Assembly: GCA_021203065.1 (NCBI GenBank)
Contig: JAJQBX010000021.1
Location: 130,514 to 194,513, forward strand
DNA: 64,000 nt
Direction: 5' to 3'
Origin: Oscillospiraceae bacterium
GTDB taxonomy: Bacteria; Bacillota; Clostridia; Oscillospirales; Ruminococcaceae
Shown here in pieces: positions 1,854 through 59,748 of the stretch. The position numbers and the translations under genes are program-made. Each line of letters begins with the position of its first letter. Position 1 is the stretch's first letter. Below the pieces are notes generated by a model. The model saw only the letters and a list, made by a program, of their open reading frames with translations, was not told the DNA's origin and made no database searches.

Positions 1854-1868
1854 TTGGAGGCGTTGAAA

Positions 1869-2000
1869 ATGACTGATTATGAACCTCATGTAATGGAAAT
1901 TGTAGGCTTTGGTACGAACGACCAATGGAATGATGTAGTCTGCTCATTGCCGGGCTGGTCTGGACCTGCCGCCGACAAGGGCGAATACAGCGACATGTGA
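1869..2000 (+). CDS. Small ORF (43 aa), hypothetical, co-transcribed with 681..1853
   Basis: Below the ORF-track cutoff. GGAGG at 1856-1860 lies 8 nt before the ATG at 1869. Hand translation MTDYEPHVMEIVGFGTNDQWNDVVCSLPGWSGPAADKGEYSDM, stop at 1998-2000. It lies between the upstream stop (1851-1853) and the terminator at 2016-2046. Confidence 0.35.
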   Translation: MTDYEPHVMEIVGFGTNDQWNDVVCSLPGWSGPAADKGEYSDM

Positions 2001-2015
2001 TATTGATAACTCAAC

Positions 2016-2046
2016 AGCGGCGGCTTTTGCCGTCGCTTGAGTTTTT
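2016..2046 (+). terminator. Intrinsic terminator
   Basis: AGCGGCGGC-tttt-GCCGTCGCT stem (one G-U pair) followed by tgaGTTTTT. Confidence 0.6.
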
Positions 2047-2057
2047 GAGGAGGGCTT

Positions 2058-2588
2058 ATGAAGAGGGCATACTTGGGGCTGGCGGTGGCATGCTTGGTTC
2101 TCCTTTGCGCCTGCCAGAGCAGCAATGTCTCTGAGACAGGGACAAGCGATGTGACGGAAGAGTTGCCGGTTACTACTTCGGCTGAGGAGACGGAGGAGGT
2201 TACGGCTTCGGTTACTTCGGTGACTGAGGTGACCAGTGAAGTGACTACGACTACGGCTGAGGCTACGGCGGCTTCTACAACAACTGCTGCTACAACTGAA
2301 ACTACAACAACGACAACAACAGCTTCCACCTCTGCGGCTACGGCGTTGGTGACGACAACTACTGCGGAGGAGGATACAGTCATTCTCGATGAGGATGACG
2401 AGGTAATTATAGACGAATCGGACGGTGCGGTTGCGACCGGTGTACCTTCCACTGCAGCCGAGACGACTGCAACATCAGTCACAACTGCCGCCGTTCCTTC
2501 GTATACAACAAGCTCGACCTCTGCCTCTACTTCAGGCACTTCTTCAAGTGGACTTGATAACTGGCAGGGTCCAGTACCGATTGATTGA
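2058..2588 (+). CDS. Lipoprotein with Thr/Glu/Ala/Ser-rich low-complexity body
   Basis: SD GAGGAGGG precedes the ATG. Signal peptide plus lipobox MKRAYLGLAVACLVLLCAC-QSS. The larger antisense ORF 1886..2704 has Val/Ala-run composition typical of a shadow ORF. Confidence 0.7.
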   Translation: MKRAYLGLAVACLVLLCACQSSNVSETGTSDVTEELPVTTSAEETEEVTASVTSVTEVTSEVTTTTAEATAASTTTAATTETTTTTTTASTSAATALVTTTTAEEDTVILDEDDEVIIDESDGAVATGVPSTAAETTATSVTTAAVPSYTTSSTSASTSGTSSSGLDNWQGPVPID

Positions 2589-28085: not shown

Positions 28086-31010
28086 ATGAACCGTTATACG
28101 ACTTTATTTGAACAGCAGTCTTATCAGGATGCGCTGGATTTTTATCTTGAAACGCTTGAAAACCCGAAGCTTAAGACTTGGGATTATGTAATTCTCACTG
28201 CCAGTAACCAAGCTCAGGCAAAAGCGTATGAAGTACAGATTGAGCATCGGCTTAAGCACGGTCAGCTTCCCGGGAGCACCCATTATGCCGTGATTCCTGA
28301 CCTCGACGGCAAGCGTGTCGGAAGCGGCGGAGCTACCTTTTCCTGTATAAAATATGTCGCAGAAGACGGTGAAGAAGCCTCCGGAAACCCGTTTTCGGGA
28401 AAGAAAGTTTTGGTCATCCATTCCGGCGGAGACAGCAAGCGTGTGCCGCAGTATTCGGCATGCGGAAAGCTCTTTTCGCCCGTCCCGAGACTCCTGCCAG
28501 ATGGTCGCCGCTCAACGCTTTTTGACGAGTTCATGATCGGAATGAGTACCGTTGCCGGAAGAATCCAAGACGGCATGCTCGTCTGCTCGGGCGACGTCCT
28601 GCTTCTGTTCAACGCACTGCAGATAGACTTCTATGGCGCAGGTGCGGCGGCTCTTTCAATAAAGGAGAAAGCCGAAACCGGCAAGAATCACGGTGTTTAT
28701 CTCAAGGATGAAAAAGGCAATGTCGGAAGATTTCTCCATAAACAGACGGTCGAAACCCTCACGGATGTAGGCGCAGTCGATTCAAACGGCAAGGTCGACA
28801 TCGACACAGGCGCAGTAATTCTCACCTCCGAAGTCTTAAACGACCTCTATAAGCTTATAAATACAGACGAAACCTATCATAAATTTGTGAATGAGCAAGC
28901 CCGGCTCTCGTTCTATGCAGATTTTCTCTATCCGCTGGCATCAGGCTCAACACTCGAGCAGTTCTATAAGGAAAAGCCGGAGGGCGATTTCACCCCGGAG
29001 CTTCACGAGTGCAGAACCGCACTCTGGCAGACCCTTTCCGGCTATAATATGAAGCTTATAAGGCTTTCTCCGGCATCGTTCATCCATTTCGGAACGACGA
29101 GAGAGCTTCGGCATCTCATGACCGACGGAATGGACGAGTACAGATTTCTCGACTGGTCGTCGACAATCGGAAGCAATCTTTCTCCAAGAGATTTCGCCGT
29201 CAGTAACAGCTATGTCAGCCGCCGTTCAACCGTCGGCAAAGGCAGCTATATCGAGGATTCGAGAATCCACCGTTACACAGAGGTAGGGAAGAAGTGCGTC
29301 ATTTCCGGAGTAACCCTCACCGGTGAAACCGTTCCCGACGGCTCTGTTCTTCACGGCTTGAAGCTTGATGACGGACGCTTTGTCTGCCGGATGTATGGCA
29401 TAGACGACAATCCGAAAGAGAATACACTTTTCGGAAACGACATCGGCGAGCCGCTCTGGACAGCTTCCATCTATCCCATCTGCGAAACCATCGAAGAGGC
29501 TGTAAAAGCCACCCTTTCCCTTAATCTTCAGAACGGCTGGAAGTCGGATAGCATTTGGGAAGCCATCAGTCTTAAGGACAGCTTCAATCGTGCCGACGTA
29601 ACGGCAATCCTCCCGTGGCAGGAAAACCTCTATGAGCAGGTTGTCGCAGAGGCGATTTTGGAGAACATCGACAATGGCGTTCCTGCCGAGGATGTGAGAA
29701 AGACCTACCCGAATATCGACAAGCACACGATAAAATATCTTTTAGACAAGGCGGACAGACAGGATAAAGACGACCCGGCGCAGTTCAGTAAACTCATCCG
29801 CATCTATGCCTATCTCTGGAAGCTCACCGGCGAGAACAAGTACGCTGACAAGTGCTTTCTGACGATTTCCGACACGGTGCTTGCGAATGCCGTCAGGGAC
29901 ACATCCTACAGAAGCAATGCGCATATTGTCAGGGATGAGGTGAAGACCTGTCTGCCGGTTCGTGTCAACTTCGGCGGCGGCTGGAGCGACACTCCGCCCT
30001 ATTGCATGGAGCACGGCGGAACGGTTCTCAATGCTGCAATCAGCCTTAATGGTGAGCTCCCAATTGAGGTCACACTCAGACGTCTTGATGAGCCAAAAAT
30101 AGTCCTCTGCTCGACAGATATTGGAGCATATAAGGAGTTCACCGGAGATTTATCTGAGCTCCAGAGCTGCCGCAACCCTCAGGACGCTTTCGCCCTCCAC
30201 AAGGCTGCCCTCATCGCAAGCGGCCTTATCCCGTATCAGGAGGAGGGAACTATAGAAGAGGTCTGCAGAAGCCTCGGCGGCGGTCTTTATTTCAACACAA
30301 GGGTTATAAATATTCCGAAAGGCTCAGGTCTCGGGACAAGCTCAATCTTGGCGGGTGCCTGCATAAAGGGGCTCTATGAGCTCACCGGCACAGAAATCTC
30401 ATCCGACGAGATGTACCAGAGAGTACTCTGCATGGAGCAGCTCATGTCGACCGGCGGCGGCTGGCAGGATCAGGTCGGAGGCTTAGCCCCCGGAGTAAAG
30501 ATGGTCACCTCCCGTCCAAGCCTCAAGCAGGAAATTATCTGCACACCTCTTAATATAAGCGAAGAAACTTTAAATGAACTCAACTCCCGCTTTGCACTCA
30601 TCTACACCGGTCAGCGCAGACTTGCAAGAAATCTTCTTCGGGACGTCGTCGGACGGTATGTCACAAACGACAGGACGTCTCTGGAAGCCCACTACAATAT
30701 CCAACGTCTTGCGGTTCTCATGAGGTTTGAGCTTGAAAAGGGCAACGTCGACGGCTTCGCCCGACTTTTGAGTGAGCACTGGGACGAGAGCATCCACCTC
30801 GACAGTGGCAGCACCAACACCTGCATCGACCAGATTTTCAAGTCAATTGACGATCTCATAGACGGCAGAATGATATGCGGAGCAGGCGGCGGCGGCTTCC
30901 TGCAGGTGGTTTTAAAGAAGAATGTCACAAAAGCTGATCTTTCAGCAAGGCTTAATGAAGTTTTCCAAGACAGCGGCGTCATGGTTTATGATTGCGAGAT
31001 TTTGGGGTAA
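28086..31010 (+). CDS. fkp: Bifunctional L-fucokinase / fucose-1-phosphate guanylyltransferase (Fkp-like)
   Basis: 974 aa. N-terminal nucleotidyltransferase/fucokinase-type region and a C-terminal GHMP kinase with PKGSGLGTSSILAGA motif. The architecture matches Bacteroides Fkp. Confidence 0.8.
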   Translation: MNRYTTLFEQQSYQDALDFYLETLENPKLKTWDYVILTASNQAQAKAYEVQIEHRLKHGQLPGSTHYAVIPDLDGKRVGSGGATFSCIKYVAEDGEEASGNPFSGKKVLVIHSGGDSKRVPQYSACGKLFSPVPRLLPDGRRSTLFDEFMIGMSTVAGRIQDGMLVCSGDVLLLFNALQIDFYGAGAAALSIKEKAETGKNHGVYLKDEKGNVGRFLHKQTVETLTDVGAVDSNGKVDIDTGAVILTSEVLNDLYKLINTDETYHKFVNEQARLSFYADFLYPLASGSTLEQFYKEKPEGDFTPELHECRTALWQTLSGYNMKLIRLSPASFIHFGTTRELRHLMTDGMDEYRFLDWSSTIGSNLSPRDFAVSNSYVSRRSTVGKGSYIEDSRIHRYTEVGKKCVISGVTLTGETVPDGSVLHGLKLDDGRFVCRMYGIDDNPKENTLFGNDIGEPLWTASIYPICETIEEAVKATLSLNLQNGWKSDSIWEAISLKDSFNRADVTAILPWQENLYEQVVAEAILENIDNGVPAEDVRKTYPNIDKHTIKYLLDKADRQDKDDPAQFSKLIRIYAYLWKLTGENKYADKCFLTISDTVLANAVRDTSYRSNAHIVRDEVKTCLPVRVNFGGGWSDTPPYCMEHGGTVLNAAISLNGELPIEVTLRRLDEPKIVLCSTDIGAYKEFTGDLSELQSCRNPQDAFALHKAALIASGLIPYQEEGTIEEVCRSLGGGLYFNTRVINIPKGSGLGTSSILAGACIKGLYELTGTEISSDEMYQRVLCMEQLMSTGGGWQDQVGGLAPGVKMVTSRPSLKQEIICTPLNISEETLNELNSRFALIYTGQRRLARNLLRDVVGRYVTNDRTSLEAHYNIQRLAVLMRFELEKGNVDGFARLLSEHWDESIHLDSGSTNTCIDQIFKSIDDLIDGRMICGAGGGGFLQVVLKKNVTKADLSARLNEVFQDSGVMVYDCEILG

Positions 31011-31012
31011 AC

Positions 31013-31054
31013 ATTTCTGCCAACTCAGTTGCTATAAAGTTGGCAGAAATTTTT
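31013..31054. terminator. Bidirectional terminator
   Basis: ATTTCTGCCAAC-loop-GTTGGCAGAAAT perfect 12-bp stem followed by TTTT. Confidence 0.75.
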
Positions 31055-31101
31055 ACTTTTAAGCCCTCCATCTCCTCCGAAACTCGCTTGGGGTCATTCC
31101 C

Positions 31102-31935
31102 TCAGCTTTTTTTGAACGCCCTTATGAAATAGTTGACGTCATTGTACCCACAATCAGCACCTATGCTTTCAAGACTCCGGTCGGAGAAGCGCAGGTGCTT
31201 TTTTGCGCTCGTGATCCTTACCTGCGTTAAGTATCCGTTTATCGTCGTGCCGTACTGCTCCTTGAAAATGTGCGCAAGATAGTACTTACTGATGTAAAAT
31301 TTCGCCGCCAGATCGTCAAGCCTTATATTGTTTTTGTAATTCTCGTCGAGATAATCCCGCACCGCTCTTAAGTCGTTTCTCTTGGCAAGTTCATTCCCAT
31401 GCCGCTCCGGGTTCCAGCTGTTTCGCATTATCTCTGTCAGCATGAGGCTCAAAAGCCCGTTGATTTCCATGTCACGTATATACGATTCAGATGAGGCTAT
31501 TCTCCCGATTTCCGAGATTATCCCGGAGAGATTTTCGCATCCGTCAACCGGTCGGAAGCGGAATTCTCCTCCACGCTCCCGATATTTTTCATAGATTCCG
31601 TCCATACTGTACCCATAGAAGTGCACCCACTGCAGCCTCCACAGGTCGCTCGAAGAGCGGTGGCTGTAGCTTTGCATGCAGTTCACAAACCCACAGTCGC
31701 CAGAGCTCATCTCAAACTCCTTCCCCTCGACGGTGAGAGTTCCGCTCCCACTTTTCACGATGAAGAAGAGGTACGAGCTCAATCCATTTCGCTTCGATTC
31801 GTGCGGTCTTATGGCGGAAAGCTCCCCGACCTCCTGAAGATAGATGAGATTTGAGCGTGCAAAAGCAGTTGGAGTGTAGATAATTCTTTGCGACCTGACA
31901 ATATCACCGTCAGACATAAACTGATTGCCAGCCAT
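31102..31935 (-). CDS. AraC-family transcriptional regulator (cupin sensor + HTH)
   Basis: C-terminal AraC HTH (LDDLAAKFYISKYYLAHIFKEQYGTTINGYLTQVRITSAKKHL). ATG at 31935 lies after a GGGGGT SD and a TATAAT at ~31963-31968 (minus). Confidence 0.85.
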   Translation of the reverse strand: MAGNQFMSDGDIVRSQRIIYTPTAFARSNLIYLQEVGELSAIRPHESKRNGLSSYLFFIVKSGSGTLTVEGKEFEMSSGDCGFVNCMQSYSHRSSSDLWRLQWVHFYGYSMDGIYEKYRERGGEFRFRPVDGCENLSGIISEIGRIASSESYIRDMEINGLLSLMLTEIMRNSWNPERHGNELAKRNDLRAVRDYLDENYKNNIRLDDLAAKFYISKYYLAHIFKEQYGTTINGYLTQVRITSAKKHLRFSDRSLESIGADCGYNDVNYFIRAFKKS

Positions 31936-32131
31936 ATGTAACCCCCATTTCAAAGTACTGGAACCATTATAGCACACTATCTCCAAAAAAGCAACATTGT
32001 GCTATTAACTCTCAACATAGTCTATCGAAATGGTGGGGGAATTGTTATAATATAAGCCATTGGTACAAGGCGATACCAAAGCAGCAGCTGAAAAATGTGC
32101 GCAAAATAAGAATAGTATTGGAGTTATGCAA

Positions 32132-33220
32132 ATGAAAAAAGCATTGATAACAGGTATAACAGGTCAGGACGGCTCATACTTGGCTGAATTTCTCCTCGAA
32201 AAGGGCTATGACGTCCACGGCATAATCCGCCGCTCGTCAGTAGATTACAGAGAGCGAATTGCTCATCTCGAGGGCAGAGAGCACTTTCACCTCCACTTCG
32301 GAGACATGGGCGACTCGATGAGCCTCGTGTCGGTGATCGGAAGCGTCAGACCGGATGAAATCTATAACTTGGCGGCTCAGAGCCATGTTCAGGTTTCTTT
32401 CGATGTCCCCGAATTCACAGCCGACGTCGACGCTACAGGCGTTTTAAGAGTTCTCGAGGCAGTTCGTCTTACAGGTCTCAAGGACACCTGCCGCATCTAT
32501 CAGGCATCCACTTCTGAGCTCTATGGCAAGGTTGAGGAGGTCCCTCAGCGTGAGACAACCCCTTTCCACCCTTACAGCCCCTACGCAGTCGCCAAGCAGT
32601 ATGGCTTCTGGATCACAAAAGAGTATAGGGAAGCCTACAACATGTTCTGCTGCTCGGGGATTCTCTTCAACCACGAGTCGGAGCGAAGAGGAGAGACCTT
32701 TGTAACAAGAAAGATAACTTTGGCGGCATCAAGAATCGCTCAGGGCAAGCAGGACAAGCTATACCTTGGAAATCTTTCGTCCTTAAGAGACTGGGGCTAT
32801 GCGAAAGATTATGTCGAGTGCATGTGGCTTATTTTGCAGCATGACACCCCCGAAGATTTCGTCATAGCAACCGGAGTACAGCACTCTGTGAGAGAGTTCG
32901 CAACCCTTGCTTTCCATTATGCCGGAATCGAGCTTGAGTGGCAGGGTGAGGGGATGGACGAAAAGGGAATAGACAAGGCAACCGGCAAAGTTTTGGTTGA
33001 GGTCAGCCCCGACTTCTATCGTCCTACAGATGTCGTCAATCTCTGGGGAGACCCGACAAAGGCGAAAACGGAGCTTGGCTGGAATCCTGTCAAGACCAGC
33101 TTTGAGGACTTGGTCAGAATTATGGTCGAGCACGATATGGAAAAGGTCGCCGTTGAACGTGCCGAGGAGCATATCAAGACTAATCTTGAAGAATATCTCG
33201 AAAAGGGTGTTATAAAGTAA
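32132..33220 (+). CDS. gmd: GDP-mannose 4,6-dehydratase
   Basis: [48 protein letters not shown] at 32132 is preferred (GGAG 8 nt upstream). Confidence 0.9.
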
Positions 33221-34164
33221 TGATGGAGAAAAATGCAAAAATATACGTTGCCGGTCACCGTGGAATGGTCGGCTCCGCAATAGTAAGGGAGCTCAACCGT
33301 CAGGGATATAGTAACATAGTAACAAGAACCCACAGCGAACTCGACCTGACCCGTCAGGATGCCGTTGAGAAGTTCTTCTCGGAGGAGAAGCCGGAATACG
33401 TCTTCTTGGCGGCTGCCAAGGTCGGCGGAATCGTCGCCAATGAGAGTGCGCTTGCAGATTTCATGTATGACAACATGATACTTGAGATGAACGTCGTCCA
33501 TTCAGCATGGAAAAACGGCTGCAAAAAGCTCGAATTCCTTGGATCTTCCTGCATCTATCCGAGGATGGCACCCCAGCCGATGCCGGAGAGCTGCCTCCTG
33601 ACAGGGGAGCTCGAAAAGACCAACGAGGCTTACGCCCTCGCCAAGATTTCCGGTCTTAAGTACTGCGAATTCCTCAACCGCCAGTATGGCACTGACTATA
33701 TTTCCGTAATGCCTACAAACCTCTATGGACCGAACGACAACTATCACCCCACCCACAGCCATGTTCTTCCTGCACTTATTCGCAGATTCCACGAAGCGAA
33801 AGTGGAGGGCAAGGAGTATGTCACCTGCTGGGGAGACGGCAGTCCACTCCGGGAATTTCTCTACGTCGACGACCTTGCAAACCTCTGCGTATTCCTTATG
33901 AACAACTACAGCGGCAACGAGACAGTCAACGCCGGAACGGGCAAGGAGCTTACCATCAAAGAGCTCACCGAGCTGGTGGCGAAGGTTATCGGCTATGAGG
34001 GCGAAATCCGCTGGGATCCCTCAAAGCCAAACGGCACTCCAAGAAAGCTTTTGGATGTCAGCAAGGCGACCGCCCTTGGCTGGACATACAAAACCGAGCT
34101 TGAGGACGGCATCAGGCTTTCCTATGAGGACTTCCTGAACAATCCAATGAGGGCTGAAAGATGA
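33220..34164 (+). CDS. fcl: GDP-L-fucose synthase (GDP-4-keto-6-deoxymannose 3,5-epimerase/4-reductase)
   Basis: VAGHRGMVGSAI, YALAKI, WGDGSPLREFLYVDDLA. Confidence 0.9.
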   Translation: MMEKNAKIYVAGHRGMVGSAIVRELNRQGYSNIVTRTHSELDLTRQDAVEKFFSEEKPEYVFLAAAKVGGIVANESALADFMYDNMILEMNVVHSAWKNGCKKLEFLGSSCIYPRMAPQPMPESCLLTGELEKTNEAYALAKISGLKYCEFLNRQYGTDYISVMPTNLYGPNDNYHPTHSHVLPALIRRFHEAKVEGKEYVTCWGDGSPLREFLYVDDLANLCVFLMNNYSGNETVNAGTGKELTIKELTELVAKVIGYEGEIRWDPSKPNGTPRKLLDVSKATALGWTYKTELEDGIRLSYEDFLNNPMRAER

Positions 34165-35471
34165 ACATAATTCTGCTTTCAGGCGGCTCAGGCAAACGCC
34201 TCTGGCCATTATCAAACGACATCCGTTCCAAGCAATTTATCAAGATTTTCAGAACCGACGACGGCTATGAATCGATGGTTCAGAGAGTATACCGTCAGAT
34301 AAAATCGGTCGACCCGAACGCCACCGTCACGATAGCTACCTCAAAGGCTCAGGTCTCCGCAATCCACAACCAGCTTGGCGAGGATGTCGGAGTTTCGGTT
34401 GAGCCCTGTCGCCGTGACACTTTCCCGGCAATCGCTCTTGCAACAGCCTATCTTCACGATGTGATGGGTGTTCCGGAAGACGAATCTGTTGTGGTCTGCC
34501 CGGTAGACCCCTATGTCGGGGACGACTATTTCGAGGCGATAAAAAGGCTCTGCGAGCAGGCTTCGACGGGCGAAGCAAACTTAGTCCTCATGGGAATAGA
34601 GCCGACATATCCAAGCGAGAAGTACGGCTATATCATCCCTGCTTCTGGTGCTGAAATAGCCGAAGTAAACTCTTTCAAGGAAAAGCCGGACGCCAAGACC
34701 GCCGAGGAGTACATCGCAAAGGGCGCACTCTGGAATGGCGGAGTTTTCGCCTATAAACTGAGCTACGTTTTAAACAAGGCTCACGAGCTTATCGGTTTCA
34801 CTGATTATCAGGATCTTTTCAACAGGTATGACACGCTTGAGAAGATAAGCTTTGACTACGCCGTAGTCGAAAAAGAGCCGAAAATTCAGGTAATGCGCTT
34901 TTCCGGCGAGTGGAAAGACCTTGGAACGTGGAACACCCTGACGGAGGCGATGGACGAGCCAACAATAGGCGAAGCTGTTTTAAACGACAACTGCGAAAAC
35001 GTCCATGTTCTGAACGAGCTCAATGTCCCGGTCATCTGTATGGGTCTTCACGACGTCGTAGTCTCCGCAAGCCCTGAGGGAATACTCGTCTCCGACAAGG
35101 AGCAGTCGAGCTATATCAAGCCCTATGTCGATAAAATCGACCAGCAGGTAATGTTTGCCGAAAAGTCATGGGGAAGCTTCCGTGTACTCGACGTAGAGGA
35201 GAACAGCCTCACAATCAAGGTAACCCTCAATCCCGGTCACGGAATGTACTATCACAGCCACATGCGTCGTGACGAGATATGGAACGTCATCGAGGGCGAG
35301 GGAATAGTGACCCTTGACGGCAAGAAAAGAGAGGTTGGCGTTGGCGACATCATAGAGATGAAAGCCGGCACACGTCACACCGTCACAGCCGTTACCGAGC
35401 TGAAGATAATCGAGGTTCAGCTTGGCAGTGAGATAAGCGTCCACGACAAGCAGAAATTCGGACGGGAATAA
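34161..35471 (+). CDS. manC: Mannose-1-phosphate guanylyltransferase with C-terminal cupin domain
   Basis: LSGGSGKRLWPLS nucleotidyltransferase N-terminus and a cupin HxH-type segment (GMYYHSHMRRDEIWNVIEGEG). Confidence 0.8.
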   Translation: MNIILLSGGSGKRLWPLSNDIRSKQFIKIFRTDDGYESMVQRVYRQIKSVDPNATVTIATSKAQVSAIHNQLGEDVGVSVEPCRRDTFPAIALATAYLHDVMGVPEDESVVVCPVDPYVGDDYFEAIKRLCEQASTGEANLVLMGIEPTYPSEKYGYIIPASGAEIAEVNSFKEKPDAKTAEEYIAKGALWNGGVFAYKLSYVLNKAHELIGFTDYQDLFNRYDTLEKISFDYAVVEKEPKIQVMRFSGEWKDLGTWNTLTEAMDEPTIGEAVLNDNCENVHVLNELNVPVICMGLHDVVVSASPEGILVSDKEQSSYIKPYVDKIDQQVMFAEKSWGSFRVLDVEENSLTIKVTLNPGHGMYYHSHMRRDEIWNVIEGEGIVTLDGKKREVGVGDIIEMKAGTRHTVTAVTELKIIEVQLGSEISVHDKQKFGRE

Positions 35472-35494
35472 TTTTAAAATTTTCCCGAAAACAC

Positions 35495-35523
35495 TTGAAA
35501 AATGCTTAAAAGTATGGCACAAT
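35495..35523 (+). promoter_or_regulatory. Possible weak extended -10 promoter (TTGAAA-17-TGgCACAAT)
   Basis: TTGAAA at 35495-35500, TG at 35515-35516, CACAAT at 35518-35523. It sits upstream of the terminator hairpin, not after it. Confidence 0.3.
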
Positions 35524-35550
35524 ATAGTTAGCTAAGTCTGACTACTCGGT

Positions 35551-35586
35551 GTCCTGCGGTCGGATCCGGTCGCAGGACGTTTTTTA
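35551..35586 (+). terminator. Intrinsic terminator after manC, immediately before the kinase/PqqD/peptidase cassette
   Basis: GTCCTGCG-gtcggatccggt-CGCAGGAC followed by GTTTTTT. Only ~21 nt separate it from the ATG at 35608. Confidence 0.75.
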
Positions 35587-35607
35587 TAGCATAAGGGAAG
35601 TGAACGG

Positions 35608-36396
35608 ATGGACATATTCAATGTGGAGTTTGCAGGTCTCACGATTGAGATAAAGAGTCGTTTTAAATATATGAGATGGTTCTGTCAGAGCTATATTACC
35701 GAAAACACTACTCCCGATTTTTCGGTTCAGGCAGAGGACTCAAGGCTCGAGGAGCTTCGGCAGTTCAGTCCTGAAATGCGTGACGAGTATCTTGAGCGTG
35801 ACGCCATTTATTCTGCAATAGCCTCAAAGCTCCCATATTACGACCGTGTCACTCTTCACGGCGCATGCATTTCATATAAGGACAAATCCTATCTCTTCAC
35901 CGCCGCAAGCGGAACAGGGAAATCGACCCATATCGCCCTCTGGAAGAGATATTTGGGCGACGATGTCAGCATAGTAAACGGTGACAAGCCCATCTTTCAC
36001 GTCAAGCCTGACGGCACTATCCGTGCTTACGACACCCCGTGGTGCGGCAAAGAGTGCTGGAATCAGAGAAAAAGTGGAGAAATGGCGGGAATCTGCTTCA
36101 TAAGAAGGCTCGAAACTCCGGGCGACAAAAACACCATCAGTCCGATGAAGCCTGACGAGGCTATTCCATACATGCTCCGCCAGATGTTCCATCCGTATGA
36201 AGAGGAAGCAACCGGGCTGATGCTTGGGCTGTTTGACGAAATACTTTCAAGGCTGCCGCTATGGCTATTGGAGTGCGACATCTCAGAGGATGCAGTCAGG
36301 ACAAGCTTTGAAGCCATGACCGGCGAAAAGTATCACAGGGCAGAAAAAGAAACAACAATAGAAGAAATAAACAAGCAATGGAGGATGTCAAGATGA
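35608..36396 (+). CDS. HPr-kinase-like (HprK-related) P-loop protein
   Basis: HGACISYKDKSYLFTAASGTGKSTHIALW parallels the HPrK C-terminal-domain Walker A context (HG..v.v.g.GvLi.G.SG.GKS..AL). 262 aa, no signal peptide. Confidence 0.65.
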   Translation: MDIFNVEFAGLTIEIKSRFKYMRWFCQSYITENTTPDFSVQAEDSRLEELRQFSPEMRDEYLERDAIYSAIASKLPYYDRVTLHGACISYKDKSYLFTAASGTGKSTHIALWKRYLGDDVSIVNGDKPIFHVKPDGTIRAYDTPWCGKECWNQRKSGEMAGICFIRRLETPGDKNTISPMKPDEAIPYMLRQMFHPYEEEATGLMLGLFDEILSRLPLWLLECDISEDAVRTSFEAMTGEKYHRAEKETTIEEINKQWRMSR

Positions 36397-36671
36397 AAAT
36401 CAAACAGGGCTTTATCATAAGGAAGGTAGCGGGAAAGTATGTTGTAGTCGCCACCGGCGAAGCAAGCAAGAACTTCCACGGAATGGTCAAGCTGAATGAA
36501 ACCGCAAAGAACATCTGGGAGGGCTTGGCTGCCGGCAAGACCCCGGAGGAAATCACCGATGACCTTGCCAAGCTCAACGATGCCCAGACTCCTGAGGATC
36601 ACGAAAGAATCGCTAAGGACGTTCAGTCGATGATCAAAGAGATTCAGGACGCAGGATTCTTGGAAGACTGA
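36393..36671 (+). CDS. PqqD-family protein (RiPP recognition element-like)
   Basis: MKIKQGFIIRKVAGKYVVVATGEASKNFHGMVKLNETAKNIWEGLAAGKTPEEITDDLAKL... shows the beta-strand triplet plus LNET..IWE helix pattern of PqqD. The ATG overlaps the kinase stop (ATGA). Confidence 0.7.
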   Translation: MKIKQGFIIRKVAGKYVVVATGEASKNFHGMVKLNETAKNIWEGLAAGKTPEEITDDLAKLNDAQTPEDHERIAKDVQSMIKEIQDAGFLED

Positions 36672-36674
36672 GCC

Positions 36675-37145
36675 ATGGAGCAGACAACAAGATTGGTTGA
36701 GCTTGAAAACTCCGGATATATCGTCATTCCGATCAAGGGCGTCAGCATGAATCCTCTTCTCTATAGCTTTTCATCGCAGGTTCTTATTGAAAGACTTGAC
36801 GGAAGACCCAAAGTAAACGACGTAGTTCTCTATGTCAGGGACGATGGGATGCAGGTGCTTCACAGAATCATTTCCTTTGACGGCGATATTGCCCTCATCA
36901 GGGGAGATAATACCTATTCCCTTGAGAGAGTGCCTCTTTCAGATATAAAGGGCGTCGCAACGACGTTCTGGAGAAAAGGGAGTCAGAGCTCGCACGAGAT
37001 TTCGGTTGGTGACCGTTCATACAAGCTCTACGTTAAGTTCTGGAATTTCATCTACCCCATAAGAAAGCTATGGTTCAGGGTCAAAAACAAGCTCAGAAGA
37101 ATACTTAAGATTCCGGAGAATTTTCAGGAAACAGAGACAAGATAG
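36675..37145 (+). CDS. S24/S26-family serine peptidase, SipW/Sec11-like Ser-His type
   Basis: GVSMNP (Ser), VLHRII (His) and RGDN motifs. 156 aa with a basic amphipathic C-terminus. Confidence 0.65.
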   Translation: MEQTTRLVELENSGYIVIPIKGVSMNPLLYSFSSQVLIERLDGRPKVNDVVLYVRDDGMQVLHRIISFDGDIALIRGDNTYSLERVPLSDIKGVATTFWRKGSQSSHEISVGDRSYKLYVKFWNFIYPIRKLWFRVKNKLRRILKIPENFQETETR

Positions 37146-37155
37146 AAGGTGAAGC

Positions 37156-38109
37156 ATGGAAGGTCATGTAAAAAGAAATATAGTCTGTGCACTCCTGTCG
37201 GTGATAGTTTTAGTGGTTTTCGTCATTCTGATTTGCAGTTACAATGCGAAAACCTCCGCAGAAACAAGCCAGCTTGAGTCTGCAACCGCCGAAGCGAAGC
37301 CCTATGAGGACGAGCTGACCGAGCTGAAAAGAAGCATAACAAAAGCCGCCGACGAGCTTTCCGACACAAGTGAAACCGCAAGATTCATTGTCGGCTATAT
37401 AATTTCCTCCGAGGAGGATATAACCTATGCCGAGGAGCAGGCGGCTGAATACGGCTTCGAGCCGGTTATAATACTTGATTGCTATGACAGCCTGTCAGAC
37501 CTTCTTAATCTGTCGGTTGCCGCTTCGGAAGCCGGTCATGAAATCATGCTGACGGCATCCGCATTCACATCAGCTGCTAACGACAACGCCATATCGCTTC
37601 TTTATTACATGGATAGAAACGGTATTGAGCACTCCCAAGTCTTTCTTCTTCGGAGCGACTACTATTCCGATTCGTCGATTGAGCTTCTCATTTCCGACGG
37701 TTTTGTCGGCTACACCGTCTATAACACTTCGCCTACTTCCGGAGTGACCGAGGACGGCTATGTCACGTTCGACTATTCCTACCTGACAACCGACAGCTCA
37801 TCCTACACCCGGTTCAGCTCGTCATACTCAAACTTGGCGTCAATGGTAATAGCCGTAGACATGGATTCAATCAAAACGGGAACGCTTACCGAAAGCTTTG
37901 TCCTGACGCTCTTAAGCACCATCTCTTCCTATTCCGAGAATGACGACTGCGAATTTTCGAGCGTTTCGGCTGTAGTGGAGTGCTTGCTTGAGGAAAACAA
38001 GTCGATGGAGGAAAGAACAGCTGAATACGAAGCCTACGTTGCCGAATGTGAGGAAAGAATTGAAGAGCTCGAAGAGATAATCGCCGAAATCTATGCTCAG
38101 CTGGACTGA
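37156..38109 (+). CDS. Membrane-anchored hypothetical protein with coiled-coil-like acidic segments
   Basis: AAGGTGA SD. N-terminal TM helix (IVCALLSVIVLVVFVILICS). Heptad-like acidic stretches at both ends. No recognisable domain. Confidence 0.7.
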   Translation: MEGHVKRNIVCALLSVIVLVVFVILICSYNAKTSAETSQLESATAEAKPYEDELTELKRSITKAADELSDTSETARFIVGYIISSEEDITYAEEQAAEYGFEPVIILDCYDSLSDLLNLSVAASEAGHEIMLTASAFTSAANDNAISLLYYMDRNGIEHSQVFLLRSDYYSDSSIELLISDGFVGYTVYNTSPTSGVTEDGYVTFDYSYLTTDSSSYTRFSSSYSNLASMVIAVDMDSIKTGTLTESFVLTLLSTISSYSENDDCEFSSVSAVVECLLEENKSMEERTAEYEAYVAECEERIEELEEIIAEIYAQLD

Positions 38110-38187
38110 ATCTGAAAATATCACATAAATTTTAGCTCCATTTCTCACTTTTTGAGGAATGGGGCTTTAATTTGTAAGCATAATAAG

Positions 38188-38216
38188 TTGATTTATGTCG
38201 GAAAAGGTGGTATAAT
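38188..38216 (+). promoter_or_regulatory. Sigma-A promoter TTGATT-17-TATAAT
   Basis: TTGATT at 38188-38193 and TATAAT at 38211-38216. Confidence 0.6.
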
Positions 38217-38239
38217 CTATAGAAATAAGGGGTGATACC

Positions 38240-49848: not shown

Positions 49849-51297
49849 ATGGAAAACTTACAGCTTCTTATAAAAGAATTATGTTCTTATCCTAATGAAA
49901 CGCAGTGGATAGAGTTTAAAAAGGATAATTATATGCCCGATATGATTGGTAAAGATATTAGTGCCCTTGCGAACAGTGCAGTTATCTGTGAAAAGAGCTG
50001 TGCCTATATGTTGTGGGGAATTGACGATAAGACACATGAAATAGTTGGATCAAATCATAGTTTGCAATCTCTAAAAAAGGGCAATGAAGAACTTGAAAAT
50101 TGGTTAAGATTCAAGCTTTCGAGTAATGCTAATTTCGAGTTTTATAATGTTCCAGTGAATGATACTAATGTCAGTTTGATGGTGGTATACGCGGCGATAA
50201 ATCAGCCGGTTACGTTTGATAAAATTGATTATATTAGAATTGGGAGTTATACCAAGAGAATAAGTGATTATCCGATGGTACAAGCCCAACTTTGGGATAA
50301 GCTTAGAGATTCAAAATTTGAAGAGAGGTACGCTAAGCATGACTTGAGTTTGAATGATGCACTTAATTTTATAGATTATTCGGTATATTTTGAAATGAGT
50401 GCGATGCCAATGCCAACAGATGCGGATGGTATATGTCATTACATGATTGAGGAAGGCATTTTATCAAAGCAAGATAATGGGCTATTTGCGATAACAAATA
50501 TGGGAGCGATTCTTTTTGCACGTAAGCTTTCAAACTTTCCTAGACTCTCAAGAAAATCTATACGTCTTATCAGATACCATGGTAATAATCGTCTTGATAT
50601 GGAAAATGAAATTATCAATGAAAAAGGATATGCTATTGGATTTGAAGAGCTGATAAATTATATAGAGATAGCAACCCCGACTCGAGAGACTGTCGAAAAG
50701 GCTCTCAGGAAGAAGAAAACTGCATACCCGATGTTGGCAATAAGAGAAATTATAGCTAATGCACTCATGCATCAGGATTTTTCAATTACAGGCACAAGCC
50801 CAGTTGTTGAAATATTTGACGATCGAATTGAAGTAACAAATCCGGGAACGCCATTGGTGGACATAAAGCGAATCATAGACAACCCGCCGAGATCCAGAAA
50901 CGAAAAGCTTGCAGCAGTGATGCGCCATCTCAGAATGTGCGAGGAACTTGGTACCGGATGGGATAAGATTGTAACCGTCTGCGAATTAGCTCAACTTCCG
51001 GCACCTAAAATTGAACTGTTTGAAGAAAACACAAAGGTCATTATTTTCTCGAAAATGCCATTTTCTAATATTTCTCGGGAAGATAAGTTGTGGGCTTGTT
51101 ATCTTCATGCGTGTATAAAACATATTCAAAACGAGCAAATGACAAATGCGTCTCTTAGAGAAAGATTTGGACTAGGAGACACATATATAAGCACAATTTC
51201 ACGTCTTATCAGAGATTCAGTTGACGAAAAGCTTATCAAGCCTTTTGATGCGAATACTGCTCCAAGGTATATGAAGTATGTTCCGATATGGGCGTAA
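49849..51297 (+). CDS. AlbA_2 (Schlafen-type) DNA-binding domain + HATPase_c_4-like ATP-binding domain + C-terminal wHTH protein; low-GC
   Basis: The N-terminus ETQWIEFKKDNY...IGKDISALANS is typical of the AlbA_2 / divergent-AAA family. The middle segment REIIANALMHQDF...VEIFDDRIEVTNPG is HATPase_c_4-like. The sequence is AT-rich by eye. Confidence 0.7.
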   Translation: MENLQLLIKELCSYPNETQWIEFKKDNYMPDMIGKDISALANSAVICEKSCAYMLWGIDDKTHEIVGSNHSLQSLKKGNEELENWLRFKLSSNANFEFYNVPVNDTNVSLMVVYAAINQPVTFDKIDYIRIGSYTKRISDYPMVQAQLWDKLRDSKFEERYAKHDLSLNDALNFIDYSVYFEMSAMPMPTDADGICHYMIEEGILSKQDNGLFAITNMGAILFARKLSNFPRLSRKSIRLIRYHGNNRLDMENEIINEKGYAIGFEELINYIEIATPTRETVEKALRKKKTAYPMLAIREIIANALMHQDFSITGTSPVVEIFDDRIEVTNPGTPLVDIKRIIDNPPRSRNEKLAAVMRHLRMCEELGTGWDKIVTVCELAQLPAPKIELFEENTKVIIFSKMPFSNISREDKLWACYLHACIKHIQNEQMTNASLRERFGLGDTYISTISRLIRDSVDEKLIKPFDANTAPRYMKYVPIWA

Positions 51298-51428
51298 ATT
51301 TAACTTGCTGGTAACTTGCTGCGCAATTCAGTTTTTCAAATTTATTATCGCTGAAATGACGCATTTAAGCCACTTTACGGCATATTTGAACAAATGTTAT
51401 TTGCAAATTTAACTTGCTTGCTACTTGC
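51296..51428. repeat. Two 24-nt direct repeats (AAATTTAACTTGCTGGTAACTTGC / AAATTTAACTTGCTTGCTACTTGC), each containing a doubled AACTTGC core
   Basis: Copy 1 at 51296-51319 overlaps the stop codon of the AlbA_2 gene. Copy 2 at 51405-51428. 21/24 identical by hand count. Confidence 0.75.
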
Positions 51429-51493
51429 ACGTGACAAGTTTTCAGTAAAGAATATCGCCGCCCCGAATCCCCGAGACGGCATTTTCATCCCAA

Positions 51494-52402
51494 TTATTTC
51501 TTCCCCTTATTCTCCACCATCACCCTAATCCCACTCGGCAGAACCTCCACCGTTGTCTCCCTGAACTCTCCGCCTTTCTCGCCGTCAACTGTCCATGCAA
51601 TCGGCGTCTGACTTCTGAGAGTAATCTTCGACGTCTTGAACCCGTCCATATACTCGTTGTCAAAATCGAGCTTCATGAGAGAGGAGATTATGTGGTTTAG
51701 CTCATTGGTGTTCTTAGGATTTCTGATGAGGAGAACCTCAAACTTTCCGTCGTCGAGGCGGATATTGTCGACGCCACGGATTTTCATTCCGCCGACGTGG
51801 ACGGTGTTGAGAATGAAGCCAAGGATATAATCGCCCTTGCCGCTTCTTTCCTCCGACTCGTAGCTCAGCTTATAGGAGGTCATCGACGGAATCGATGCCA
51901 AGCCCTCAAGGATGTATGCGCTGAATCCGAGTTGATTTTTTGCGTTCTGAGGAGTGCTATAGGAGACCTCCGCAAGCGTTCCGAAAGCCGCAACATAAGT
52001 GAAATACCTGCCATTGAGGTTTCCGATGTCGCAGACAAAGGGAACACCGTCAATCGCAGTTTTCGCCGCATCGAGGGTTCTTGTCGGGATACCCACCGAT
52101 TTTGAGAAGTCATTCGTCGAGCCGCAGGGGATATAGCCGAACTCCCCCTGATAGCCGGCAGTAACGAACCCGTTGACAGCTTCGTTCAGCGTTCCATCTC
52201 CTCCTGCGATGACTATCCTATCAAAATCGCTTTGGCAGCATTCGGAGACAGTCTCAAGACAGTCAAGCCGCCTCTGCGTCGGGTGTACGGTGACGGCGTA
52301 TCCGCCCTTTGTGAATGTGTCCACGATGTCCGAAAGCTTTCTTGCAATCACTTTTGTACCTGAATTCGGGTTGTAGATGAGTAGCAGTTTTTTACTGTTC
52401 AT
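51494..52402 (-). CDS. dagK: Diacylglycerol kinase-family lipid kinase (YegS/BmrU/DagK type)
   Basis: LLIYNPNSG, GGDGTLNE motifs. 302 aa. Confidence 0.85.
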   Translation of the reverse strand: MNSKKLLLIYNPNSGTKVIARKLSDIVDTFTKGGYAVTVHPTQRRLDCLETVSECCQSDFDRIVIAGGDGTLNEAVNGFVTAGYQGEFGYIPCGSTNDFSKSVGIPTRTLDAAKTAIDGVPFVCDIGNLNGRYFTYVAAFGTLAEVSYSTPQNAKNQLGFSAYILEGLASIPSMTSYKLSYESEERSGKGDYILGFILNTVHVGGMKIRGVDNIRLDDGKFEVLLIRNPKNTNELNHIISSLMKLDFDNEYMDGFKTSKITLRSQTPIAWTVDGEKGGEFRETTVEVLPSGIRVMVENKGKK

Positions 52403-57906: not shown

Positions 57907-58042
57907 ATTTTGTGCATTTTCAACAATTTTCGCTTTGTTCGGTGTTTCATTTTGTACTTGCGGGGGGGTAACGGTGTGTTATAATGTAGGTGAAATTTAG
58001 TAAAAATTTCGTCTTATTTTATACATTTGAGGTGTGGGATAT

Positions 58043-59131
58043 ATGCAAAAACAATCACTAACCAAGTTTTTTATAGTTGCGACCTTTATTTTGATGTGTT
58101 GTATTTTTACTTCATGTAGCGCAACTGTCACGAGTAATTCAAATTTTGAGGATAACAGTAGTAGTCAATCTGATTCTTCGAGCAATGTCAATACAACTAC
58201 GAGTGAAAGTGATATTATAGAAGATGTAATTGCCAACGACTCATATTTTGAGGATTTCGGTTTAACTGTAATTTCATATGAAGTAGAAAAGCGACAGACT
58301 AACGAAGATGATAAGACGGATTATGTGTGGTTCAATGTTGTTGCTGACAATGATACTTTTGAATATACAGCATCCTACAAAATCTCGTATGGCTTGTATA
58401 ATGACGGCTGGCTGCTTGACGATATTGAGAAGACTTCATGCGGAGGCACTCCGATTGCTGGCTCTAATTATTCTGAAGACGACTTATTGAGCGTTCTTTC
58501 ATTCTTGGGATATGACGTAGTTAGTAATATCACTGTTTATGGTCATGAAACTAATTTAGAAGAGGAGACAGATAAATACTATCTTACGTTTACTGACACT
58601 AGTACATATATGACTGAATACTTAGACATAACTCTTTCTTTCTACTTTACTGTGCCTGATATGTGGATAGGATGGTATGATTATACAGTGAATGCTTCCG
58701 TAGAAGAATGGCATATAGCTGGAACTTATCTCGAAGGAACATGGCGAACTTATCAGATTTTTGATGAGTATCCTATTAGTGATATGACGATTGAAACCAT
58801 ATACATTGGTGGCGGTTTAAACTCTGTTTCTGAATATACATTACCTTACTTATACAGTGTAGATTCTCTTTCAACAAAAAGTTTAATTCTTGACATAACC
58901 TATTCATCAAATACAAAAAAGAAAATCAACACAGATAATTATAGTACAAAGATAAATGGGGATTATAATTCTATGTCTTCTTTCAGGTATGTTGCAATGA
59001 ACAGTGGCTCTACGCTAATTTTTATAGGCAAGGATGATATTGCAATTAGTGGCGATGCGTGGATTGAAGTTAGCGATAGCTTGCGAACTGTTTATTTGGA
59101 TATATGTAAGGTGACTCCACTTAACGATTAA
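58043..59131 (+). CDS. Low-GC lipoprotein, hypothetical
   Basis: MQKQSLTKFFIVATFILMCCIFTSC-SAT lipobox, followed by a Ser/Asn-rich linker. Clearly AT-rich versus neighbours. No domain recognised. Confidence 0.7.
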   Translation: MQKQSLTKFFIVATFILMCCIFTSCSATVTSNSNFEDNSSSQSDSSSNVNTTTSESDIIEDVIANDSYFEDFGLTVISYEVEKRQTNEDDKTDYVWFNVVADNDTFEYTASYKISYGLYNDGWLLDDIEKTSCGGTPIAGSNYSEDDLLSVLSFLGYDVVSNITVYGHETNLEEETDKYYLTFTDTSTYMTEYLDITLSFYFTVPDMWIGWYDYTVNASVEEWHIAGTYLEGTWRTYQIFDEYPISDMTIETIYIGGGLNSVSEYTLPYLYSVDSLSTKSLILDITYSSNTKKKINTDNYSTKINGDYNSMSSFRYVAMNSGSTLIFIGKDDIAISGDAWIEVSDSLRTVYLDICKVTPLND

Positions 59132-59245
59132 CGCTTTAATTGCTTTAAAGAACAAATTCTATCTTATCGGATGAGCTTTCTTCAAAGTGATTACATACAT
59201 TTTATATCCTTTATTTTGGTACGATTTTTTTGAGAGAAGAAAATT

Positions 59246-59424
59246 GGCTCCCCTGCTAAGGGGACACTTGCTTTTGGCAAGCCGCTGTCAGCGAAGCTGA
59301 CTGAGGGGTGCGCGAGCCCGCAGGGCGAGCGCGTCGCCGGAGGTGACAAAAAGTAGGGGCGGATACCATCCGCCCGAACCCACAGCACAGACGTTAGCGG
59401 GCGGGCAGTTAGCGAAGCTAACTG
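59246..59424. repeat. Composite REP-like palindromic element (several hairpins incl. two GCGAAGC loops); includes the terminator for ogt/GH31 on the minus strand
   Basis: GGCTCCCCTgctaAGGGGA ... GCTGTCAGCgaaGCTGAC TGAGGGGTGCGCGAGCCCgcaGGGCGAGCGCG ... GGGCGGAtaccaTCCGCCC ... CAGTTAGCgaaGCTAACTG. Confidence 0.75.
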
Positions 59425-59436
59425 TATATCCAGCCC

Positions 59437-59745
59437 CTACAGATTCTGCCACCTGAATCTCTCCATATCCACCTTCCCCTCACCCGTAAACTCCACACCT
59501 TCGCTTTCGAGTAATTCCCTCTGCCGATTCTCTCCCCCAAACGCAAACGCCGGAGAAAGCGAGCCGTCACGCATGACGACTCTGTGGCAGGGGATGACTC
59601 CCGGTTCGGGGTTTCGGTGGAGGGCATAGCCTACAACACGGGACCATTTGGGATTACCTGAAAGAGTGGCTACCTGTCCATAGGTAGCCACTTTTCCTTT
59701 GGGTATAAGTTTAACAGTCTCGTATATAATCTCGAAGCTCGACAT
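59437..59745 (-). CDS. ogt: Methylated-DNA--protein-cysteine methyltransferase (single MGMT DNA-binding/active-site domain)
   Basis: IPCHRVV active-site motif. 102 aa. Confidence 0.85.
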   Translation of the reverse strand: MSSFEIIYETVKLIPKGKVATYGQVATLSGNPKWSRVVGYALHRNPEPGVIPCHRVVMRDGSLSPAFAFGGENRQRELLESEGVEFTGEGKVDMERFRWQNL

Positions 59746-59748
59746 GGC

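Follow-up and report, generated by a model that had tools for sequence, protein, structure and literature searches.

A probable LPP-like RiPP maturation operon in gut Clostridia and a candidate precursor peptide encoded apart from it

Four genes at 35608-38109 on the + strand of a 64,000-nucleotide stretch from an Oscillospiraceae bacterium (contig JAJQBX010000021.1, positions 130,514 to 194,513; the whole stretch is called the window below) form an operon whose kinase, recognition element and leader peptidase are probably the maturation core of a pathway for peptides made by the ribosome and modified after translation (RiPPs). The pathway would resemble the one that makes linear polyphosphorylated peptides (LPPs) and would belong to a divergent clade of such systems in Clostridia. 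A first-pass annotation had taken these genes for a minimal, uncharacterised phosphorylation and processing module; a RiPP-type module is what we find as well, but it can no longer be called uncharacterised, since the LPP set was described in 2026. The accompanying statement that HprK-like kinases are characterised as RiPP tailoring enzymes only in lasso-peptide clusters has been superseded by the same family (PMC13381572).

The LPP family was described and partly characterised by Popov et al. (Nat Commun, May 2026; PMC13381572), who defined it from an archaeal-type signal peptidase in Bacilli, with 80 of 9173 genomes carrying it. The lppA-K-B-S-D-N cluster of Paenibacillus alginolyticus DSM5050 encodes the precursor LppA, the HprK-like kinase LppK, the RiPP recognition element (RRE) LppB, the signal peptidase I-like LppS, the MsbA-like exporter LppD and the nucleotidyltransferase (NTP transferase) LppN (PMC13381572). 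LppK places up to four phosphates on Ser3 of the core, as shown in B. subtilis, and LppS (S29/H68/D93) cuts the leader after T-1 only when LppB is present (PMC13381572). The kind of system is therefore already known, and that paper only touches on the Clostridia clade and does not analyse it: a few Clostridia proteins fall in its small sequence similarity network (SSN) clusters 4 and 9, with RREs like that of the window and precursors entered as "ND" (PMC13381572). What we add is the precursor family with its leader motif, a candidate substrate in the window, the size of the Clostridia clade and its constant companion proteins. Homologue searches point to a sister clade in gut and rumen Clostridia that is much larger than the LPP systems of Bacilli, with the kinase family comprising 442 clusters in a word-limited protein search and relatives of the kinase present in at least 584 species-representative genomes, nearly all of them metagenome-assembled genomes (MAGs) of gut or rumen Clostridia.

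The four same-strand open reading frames (ORFs) called in the first pass are all present on the + strand, coordinates included. The first (35608-36396, 262 aa) would encode a ScmC/HprK-like P-loop kinase analogous to LppK, with the Walker A context HGACISYKDKSYLFTAASGTGKSTHIALW, in which SGTGKST begins at nt 35908, as had been read before. The second (36393-36671, 92 aa) encodes a PqqD-type RRE, the likely LppB analogue; its ATG at 36393 does overlap the kinase stop codon as ATGA, an overlap of 4 nt, with GGAGG 7 nt upstream, and homologues begin at the same MKIK. The third (36675-37145, 156 aa) would be an archaeal/SipW-type Ser-His(-Asp) leader peptidase of family S26 without an N-terminal transmembrane (TM) helix, analogous to LppS, and the GVSMNP and VLHRII motifs reported for it place the Ser24 codon at 36744-36746 and the His63 codon at 36861. 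The fourth (37156-38109, 317 aa) is predicted to be a single-pass membrane protein consisting of a TM helix, a coiled coil, a NodB/CE4-like barrel and a second coiled coil, in agreement with the single N-terminal TM helix and coiled-coil ends seen earlier.

By its modelled structure, the first protein is a P-loop kinase with the HprK/PEPCK fold. An AlphaFold (AF2) model built on the homologue alignment has a predicted local distance difference test score (pLDDT) of 95.4, and the 50 best Foldseek matches listed are all HprK/P or ATP-dependent phosphoenolpyruvate carboxykinase (PEPCK), led by HprK/P 1kkl (E 5e-6), with TM-scores of 0.3-0.5 that mark likeness at the level of the fold. The sequence profile ranks PEPCK first, a single-sequence search of the PDB gave nothing useful, and the blocks HGA...SGTGKSTH...NGDKP...PWxGKE are invariant across 27 homologues. 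Local Pfam assigns the kinase to no family, with no Hpr_kinase match at E<0.1, and the match to Hpr_kinase_C/N by which HprK/P proper is recognised was not found; precomputed annotation places it in Pfam PF27840, "ScmC". NCBIfam gives weak matches to TIGR04352 (HprK-related kinase A) and to TIGR04249 (ScmC), and since the latter, its best NCBIfam match, reaches 16.4 bits against a cut-off of 125, the protein is not a ScmC equivalog. These two models are also the ones through which LppK kinases were recognised (PMC13381572), and the likeness of the window kinase to LppK is one of shared models and fold rather than of direct comparison with the LppK sequence.

The RRE matches Pfam PqqD above the gathering score (E 3.3e-11), and its family profile aligns with LppB in hhalign with a probability of 95.4% (E 1.9e-8) over 57 residues; the LppB and LppS sequences used for comparison were those in the Supplementary Data of Popov et al. 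(PMC13381572). For the peptidase, the match to Pfam Peptidase_S24 stays under the cut-off (E 0.0097), and the elements GxS24MxP, LH63R and GD78N are invariant in 28 homologues. The best PDB match of its family profile is the bacterial signal peptidase I SpsB, whose Ser box aligns with that of the family while His occupies the position of the general-base Lys, a replacement that bears out the earlier call of a SipW/Sec11-type Ser/His enzyme. Compared with LppS, the profile aligns with a probability of 98% (E 2.3e-13) and with the catalytic Ser and His in register, the Ser-to-His spacing of 39 residues being equal to that between S29 and H68. Identity is about 21% to LppS and 30% to a member of SSN cluster 9, which suggests that the window peptidase lies outside SSN cluster 1 of Popov et al., whose edges were drawn at E<1e-23 to the P. 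alginolyticus group.

With SipW, Sec11 and the archaeal signal peptidases I (MEROPS S26B), the window peptidase shares the GxSMxP Ser box, the GDN box and a (K/H)R box with His where the bacterial enzymes have Lys, but it differs from them in having no N-terminal membrane anchor and in being linked to an RRE and a kinase; the SipW model NF046067 gives it 12.5 bits against a cut-off of 190, and it has no hydrophobic N-terminus. Because it is without the anchor, the enzyme would face the cytoplasm, and because its gene is always linked to those of an RRE and a kinase, we regard it as a predicted RiPP leader peptidase rather than a secretory signal peptidase.

We compared 81 loci, the window and 80 fetched relatives, each with 8 kb flanks and searched in six frames with hidden Markov models (HMMs). 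When about 5000 small ORFs from around the cassettes were clustered by all-against-all blastp-short, the clusters were only out-of-frame shadows of conserved genes, with no precursors among them. The precursors emerged when ORFs directly upstream of kinases were read; six of these made an HMM that recovered about twenty further precursors in the loci and one in the window. The leader has the form Y-x-x-[P/H]-x-M-E-[V/I]-x-x-F-x-x-x-D and is followed by a conserved junction Ser(-Gly); the family consensus reads MKExYExxEMEIIEFExEDVIT[A/T]SG, and the core is hypervariable and rich in Gly, Pro and acidic residues. A word-limited search of 5.8 billion proteins found 52 clusters at E<1e-3, all short and every named hit "hypothetical", and an exhaustive search found 6171 representatives at 50% identity (E<=1e-3), the 150 best-scoring of which are mostly 31-72 aa long. 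The family matches no Pfam or NCBIfam model, and a literature search for its motif strings gave no match.

The member in the window is a 43-aa peptide encoded at 1869-2000 on the + strand, consisting of MTDYEPHVMEIVGFGTNDQWNDVVC followed by SLPGWSGPAADKGEYSDM, with the predicted leader/core junction between the two. Scored against the HMM built without it, this candidate reaches 22.0 bits (E 1.3e-5), compared with 5.4 bits for the next ORF of the window and a maximum of 12.3 bits over 40 simulated windows. It has GGAGG 8 nt before its ATG and is called as a 43-aa gene, with the same neighbours, in two independent assemblies. Right after its stop codon, at 2003-2048 (+), stands a strong hairpin with a U-run (-24.5 kcal/mol, z -4.3, none of 200 shuffles as stable) that may control read-through of the precursor transcript.

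Two lines of reasoning tie this peptide to the operon. One is that leader type tracks kinase clade: the window peptide has a YEPH leader, that is, YxxH and not YxxP, and YxxH leaders were found only beside kinases at least 46% identical to that of the window (L004, L005, L006, L013, L014 and L022), while precursors near more distant kinases have YxxP or YxxA. The other is that split systems recur. In the MAG Oscillospiraceae U.11_4, one locus (L022) comprises genes for a surface protein, a pair of precursors and a paralogue of the kinase, RRE and S26 genes being absent, while a second (L002) holds kinase, RRE, S26 peptidase and membrane protein, an arrangement comparable to that of the window. 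Paralogous loci within one genome were seen both here and in MAG U_127035 (L004 and L005); some have several precursors in a row, and where one locus has an RRE and a peptidase, the other may be without them.

In the alignment of the clade, the junction Ser corresponds to Ser26 of the window peptide, which suggests a leader of residues 1-25 and the core SLPGWSGPAADKGEYSDM, give or take two residues. Its Ser41 lies in a C-terminal S-D-x that is common to eight of the ten YxxH-type precursors. Such ends occur in the window, L004, L005, L013 and L014, the window peptide closing with EYSDM, and they recall the C-terminal Ser phosphorylated by paeninodin-type kinases.

Homology to the LPP system and the anatomy of the locus together suggest how the pathway might run. 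A short precursor would be made, the best candidate in this stretch being the 43-aa peptide, and its leader, through Y4-x-x-H7-x-M9-E10-I11-V12-x-F14...D18, would bind the PqqD-type RRE. The ScmC/HprK-like kinase would then phosphorylate a core Ser of the RRE-bound peptide, with the junction Ser26, Ser31 in "SG" and Ser41 in the C-terminal S-D-x as candidate acceptors. The cytoplasm-facing S26 peptidase (Ser24/His63/Asp78) would cut off the leader, probably right before Ser26, with the RRE assisting. Since the precursor lies in a separate three-gene unit, the enzymes would act in trans. This clade has no dedicated ABC (ATP-binding cassette) exporter and no NTP_transf_5, and its conserved membrane protein carries a NodB-like domain predicted to be extracytoplasmic.

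The likeness to LPP systems extends to several features at once. The trio of HprK-like kinase, discrete PqqD RRE and anchor-less Ser/His/Asp peptidase occurs in the same order, the leader Tyr opens a [Y]xx[P]-type motif and stands about 18-22 residues upstream of a conserved Ser close to the junction, and complete relatives of the window operon carry an ABC exporter and NTP_transf_5. On the other hand, the window has no lppD or lppN, its precursor is unlinked and it has the NodB-like membrane protein in addition, and the precursors of the clade are flanked by large secreted and low-complexity proteins that are not described for LPP.

A number of observations weigh against assigning the operon to an LPP-like pathway, or against the 43-aa peptide as its substrate. 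LppS and LppB are only distantly similar (21% identity), the nearest listed proteins being in cluster 9, and pairwise BLASTP gives no alignment between the window RRE and LppB. The clade leader, Y-E-x-[P/A/H]-E-M-E-I-I-E-F-E-x-E-D-V-I-T-[A/T]-S-G, differs from the published LPP motif YxxPxVLxHQxIxFETxxS, and a regular expression loosened from the latter gave no credible match in the 81 loci. The candidate precursor lies 33.6 kb from the operon, behind housekeeping genes, and the three closest relatives have no precursor within 8 kb of the kinase locus; its link to the operon, as judged from these comparisons, is one of family-level co-occurrence and not of adjacency in this genome. No ABC exporter (the sole nucleotide-binding domain, NBD, match being PstB) and no NTP_transf_5 gene were found in the operon or elsewhere in the 64 kb window. 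Finally, about 26 of the 81 kinase loci have no nearby RRE and often stand next to a PGA_cap gene, so that the kinase family is not always RRE-dependent.

The relatives also show how the parts are usually combined. A PqqD gene lies near the kinase in 55 of the 81 loci and an S26 gene in 43, NTP_transf_5 (PF14907) in 17 and the membrane protein in 16. Many loci have an exporter with TM and nucleotide-binding domains (TMD-NBD) 3' of the S26 gene, and in three the S26 domain is fused to the exporter N-terminus to give proteins of 704-819 aa (L007 1965-4424, L010 9241-11355, L013 7088-9496). This fusion would couple leader removal to export as in the peptidase-containing ABC transporters that export bacteriocins; it differs from them in using a serine S26 rather than a cysteine C39 peptidase, and the window peptidase is free-standing, with no exporter. 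Contigs recovered from two precursors share one fixed gene order: a large signal-peptide protein (950-1559 aa), the precursor, a "mid" protein of 146-282 aa, ScmC, PqqD, a 150-aa S26 peptidase, the ABC exporter and NTP_transf_5. Related loci usually follow this arrangement, with precursors of 35-55 aa.

The precursor unit of the window, 681-2588 (+), corresponds to the first three positions of this order. Its first gene (681-1853) encodes a secreted protein of 390 aa, ends 15 nt before the precursor and has its relatives among the large surface proteins encoded ahead of precursors in other loci: it has no Pfam match, its sole BLASTP matches are the large proteins of L022, L013 and L060 (E 2e-7 to 3e-4), and its signal peptide is near-identical to that of L022. 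Its third gene (2058-2588) encodes a lipoprotein-like protein of 176 aa with a long low-complexity region rich in Ser, Thr and Glu; it holds the place of the "mid" protein and is its equivalent by position and composition only, with no alignable similarity.

If a large protein always accompanies the precursor, then the module might act on a protein, be it the large secreted, the low-complexity "mid" or the membrane protein, rather than on a small peptide. We consider this unlikely. In the window, as in all complete loci examined, the large signal-peptide protein does lie upstream of the precursor at a distance of 12-25 nt, the W-T-G-Y-Y tail of "mid" and some large proteins resembles the end of some precursor cores, and LPP precursors reach 200 aa (PMC13381572). 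Set against this, the [Y]xx[P/H]xME[IV] leader is present only on short ORFs and is found in neither the membrane protein nor the large proteins, and an anchor-less S26 peptidase, as predicted from its sequence, would face the cytoplasm, away from secreted domains. RREs, moreover, bind N-terminal leaders. The first-pass annotation had offered two places for the substrate, elsewhere or in the adjacent membrane protein; the former fits the precursor-type gene at 1869-2000, and the latter we discard. Its finding that the gaps at 35472-35607 and 38110-38239 contain no precursor was correct.

The 317-aa membrane protein was rejected as a substrate for being a NodB-like extracytoplasmic protein with no leader motif. 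Its AF2 model (pLDDT 87.8) shows, after an N-terminal TM helix, an alpha/beta barrel with one long helix before it and another at the C-terminus, and the best Foldseek match of the barrel is the polysaccharide deacetylase 3rxz (NodB/CE4; E 2e-6). The 17 homologues compared share no invariant His, so that the barrel probably lacks the metal site usual for NodB-like proteins. In the 16 loci that have the gene, it adjoins S26 or the S26-ABC fusion or lies one or two genes beyond.

A different objection is that the operon may be the decaying remnant of a complete LPP-like cluster that no longer makes a product, since an ABC exporter and/or NTP_transf_5, together with a precursor next to the enzymes, is found in most S26 loci, and the operon and window have neither exporter nor transferase. 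The genes themselves make this distinctly improbable. The catalytic and family-invariant residues are all intact; comparison with three species-level relatives at dS above 0.8 gives each of the four genes a dN/dS (the ratio of nonsynonymous to synonymous substitution) of 0.05-0.15, with 0.08-0.10 for the kinase and 0.12-0.15 for the membrane protein; and the four-gene order with a near-identical 5' leader is retained in at least four genomes. Another 15 clusters consist of membrane-protein homologues at 59-97% identity. By these substitution ratios the four genes are under purifying selection. The first-pass annotation had reasoned that homologous trios found always inside complete clusters would make this one a decayed known cluster: the trios do usually sit in fuller loci with an ABC exporter and NTP_transf_5, but the form seen in the window is conserved and selected rather than decayed.

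The operon might also be the tailoring part of a paeninodin-type phosphorylated lasso pathway whose cyclase and B2 protease are encoded elsewhere in the genome. The lasso-peptide clusters of paeninodin and pseudomycoidin (PadeK/ThcoK, B1 RRE, PsmN) likewise pair an HprK-like kinase acting on a ribosomal peptide with a discrete RRE that binds a [Y/W]xxP leader, and NTP_transf_5 is a partner in complete relatives of the window operon. The clade leader is lasso-like in this respect, most members have a Thr two residues before the junction Ser, the best NCBIfam match of the window RRE is the lasso PqqD chaperone NF033530 (E 4.4e-7), and about one third of LPP clusters adjoin lasso clusters (PMC13381572). 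We nonetheless judge a lasso pathway very improbable. The 64 kb window holds no SGGxDS PP-loop (asparagine-synthetase-like) protein of at least 250 aa, the 81 loci yielded two PP-loop matches, both unrelated, and the leader peptidase is of S26 type rather than a transglutaminase-like B2 cysteine protease; LPP systems, for their part, give linear products and discriminate against lasso precursors (PMC13381572). The absence of a lasso cyclase, radical SAM enzyme and ABC exporter reported in the first pass holds for both operon and window.

The SynChlorMet cassette offers a further comparison, as its ScmC (TIGR04249/PF27840) belongs to the same Pfam family as the window kinase and is likewise paired with a PqqD protein. 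It differs by its two radical SAM/SPASM enzymes, which are absent from the loci: a few have nothing more than isolated unrelated CxxxCxxC ORFs in their 8-kb flanks, and neither a SPASM-type pair nor Pfam domains of lasso cyclase or B2 are listed in the gene tables of the complete loci. A literature search for the combination of PqqD, HPr kinase and S24 and for PF27840 found nothing, and the RRE-Finder paper makes no mention of such kinases or peptidases.

The boundaries of the operon bear on whether it works together with the genes upstream of it. A promoter-like site found by consensus scan (35495-35523, +; TTGAAA-17-CACAAT with TG) is followed in the 5' leader by a GC-rich hairpin with a T-run (35548-35590, +) that is terminator- or attenuator-like, has a 12-bp stem in its centroid structure and ends 18 nt before the kinase start. 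The stretch of about 110 nt that precedes the kinase gene is near-identical in the window (35480-35590), L003 (7880-7990) and L001 (about 7890-8000), and the gene ahead of it differs, being manC in the window and phoR in L003. Promoter and hairpin thus belong to the kinase operon, since they are near-identical in three genomes with differing upstream genes. The block looks like a conserved attenuator or leader, a regulatory role we infer from its conservation; Rfam gave no match on the whole window, nor on the operon at a relaxed threshold. At the other end, a terminator-like hairpin (38134-38166, +) closes the operon, and the next gene, for a P-type ATPase, has its own promoter, rated good, at 38188-38216 (+).

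It is scarcely credible, then, that the cassette and the upstream gmd-fcl-manC genes together put a sugar-phosphate on the substrate, a speculation of the first pass favoured by physical adjacency in the window and by the frequent location of LPP clusters in capsule/polysaccharide loci with LppN proposed to add a further group (PMC13381572), given that the conserved promoter and hairpin stand between the two sets of genes, that L003 has phoR 180 nt upstream of the kinase instead, that no manC, fcl or fkp homologue neighbours the kinase in the 80 related loci (gmd was outside this count), and that the window has no NTP_transf_5 gene.

Beyond the assignment to an LPP-like pathway, we tentatively raise the possibility, to which we attach rather little confidence, that the gut-Clostridia systems are a distinct RiPP subclass in which a phosphopeptide is tied to the cell envelope and the enzymes serve unlinked precursors in trans. 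The peptide would then act with the large secreted, low-complexity and NodB-like proteins, and it might, for example, decorate or assemble a surface structure rather than being a secreted antibiotic. In any case, large surface proteins are constant companions of these systems, which offers a clue to what phosphorylated linear peptides do biologically. The leader motif makes the Clostridia systems minable and gives the operon a concrete candidate substrate, and the split architecture, with RiPP enzymes and candidate precursor tens of kilobases apart, is one that cluster-based mining misses.

The companion proteins have some similar ends. The sequence W-T-G-Y-Y closes the "mid" proteins of L060 (7519-7971), L085 (8223-8663) and L030 (7445-7972), with W-T-D-Y-Y in that of L022 (7318-7995), and it also ends both large surface proteins of L030 (31-7352). 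The similar GWTGDY closes one precursor core, the ends of a few others are rich in aromatic residues, and the window protein at 681-1853 ends in TYYGY. These endings may be a shared C-terminal tag. Another protein, broadly similar in type to the large proteins found ahead of precursors in other loci, is encoded in the window at 7705-10302, where 865 aa of secreted protein carry a Listeria-Bacteroides (Flg_new) repeat and many short Gly/Thr-rich repeats; no precursor follows it.

Some kinase relatives stand in other settings. In eight Acutalibacteraceae loci (L047, L048, L053, L056, L057, L064, L066 and L077; kinase at about 8001) a lone kinase comes right after PGA_cap (CapA-like), with no RRE or S26 gene within 8 kb, so the family also has an RRE-independent context. 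In rumen Eubacterium (L027, L055, L058 and L016) the gene after kinase and PqqD encodes a secreted protein that is rich in Cys and has a dockerin-like end, no S26 peptidase is present, and in three of the four loci (L027, L058 and L016) an ECF-S-like membrane protein with a long acidic N-terminus precedes the pair.

The 33.6 kb between the two units of the window contain shikimate-pathway genes, DegV, pst-phoU-phoBR, a fucokinase gene, araC and gmd-fcl-manC, none of which is related to the RiPP system. L003 carries the phoR orthologue (89% identity) at a distance of 180 nt upstream of its kinase, and the block at 28086-35471 (fucokinase/GDP-fucose pyrophosphorylase, araC, gmd, fcl and manC) stands between phoR and the kinase operon only in the genome of the window; the fucose/GDP-sugar block is therefore specific to this genome, and in the relatives the operon follows directly behind pst-phoU-phoBR. 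That phosphate locus is a curious neighbour for a polyphosphorylating system and may be plain synteny. The GC content falls to 41-42% at 1-2000, 50001-52000 and 58001-60000, compared with about 49% elsewhere in the window, and the first of these dips, which covers the secreted protein and precursor unit, may reflect a separate acquisition.

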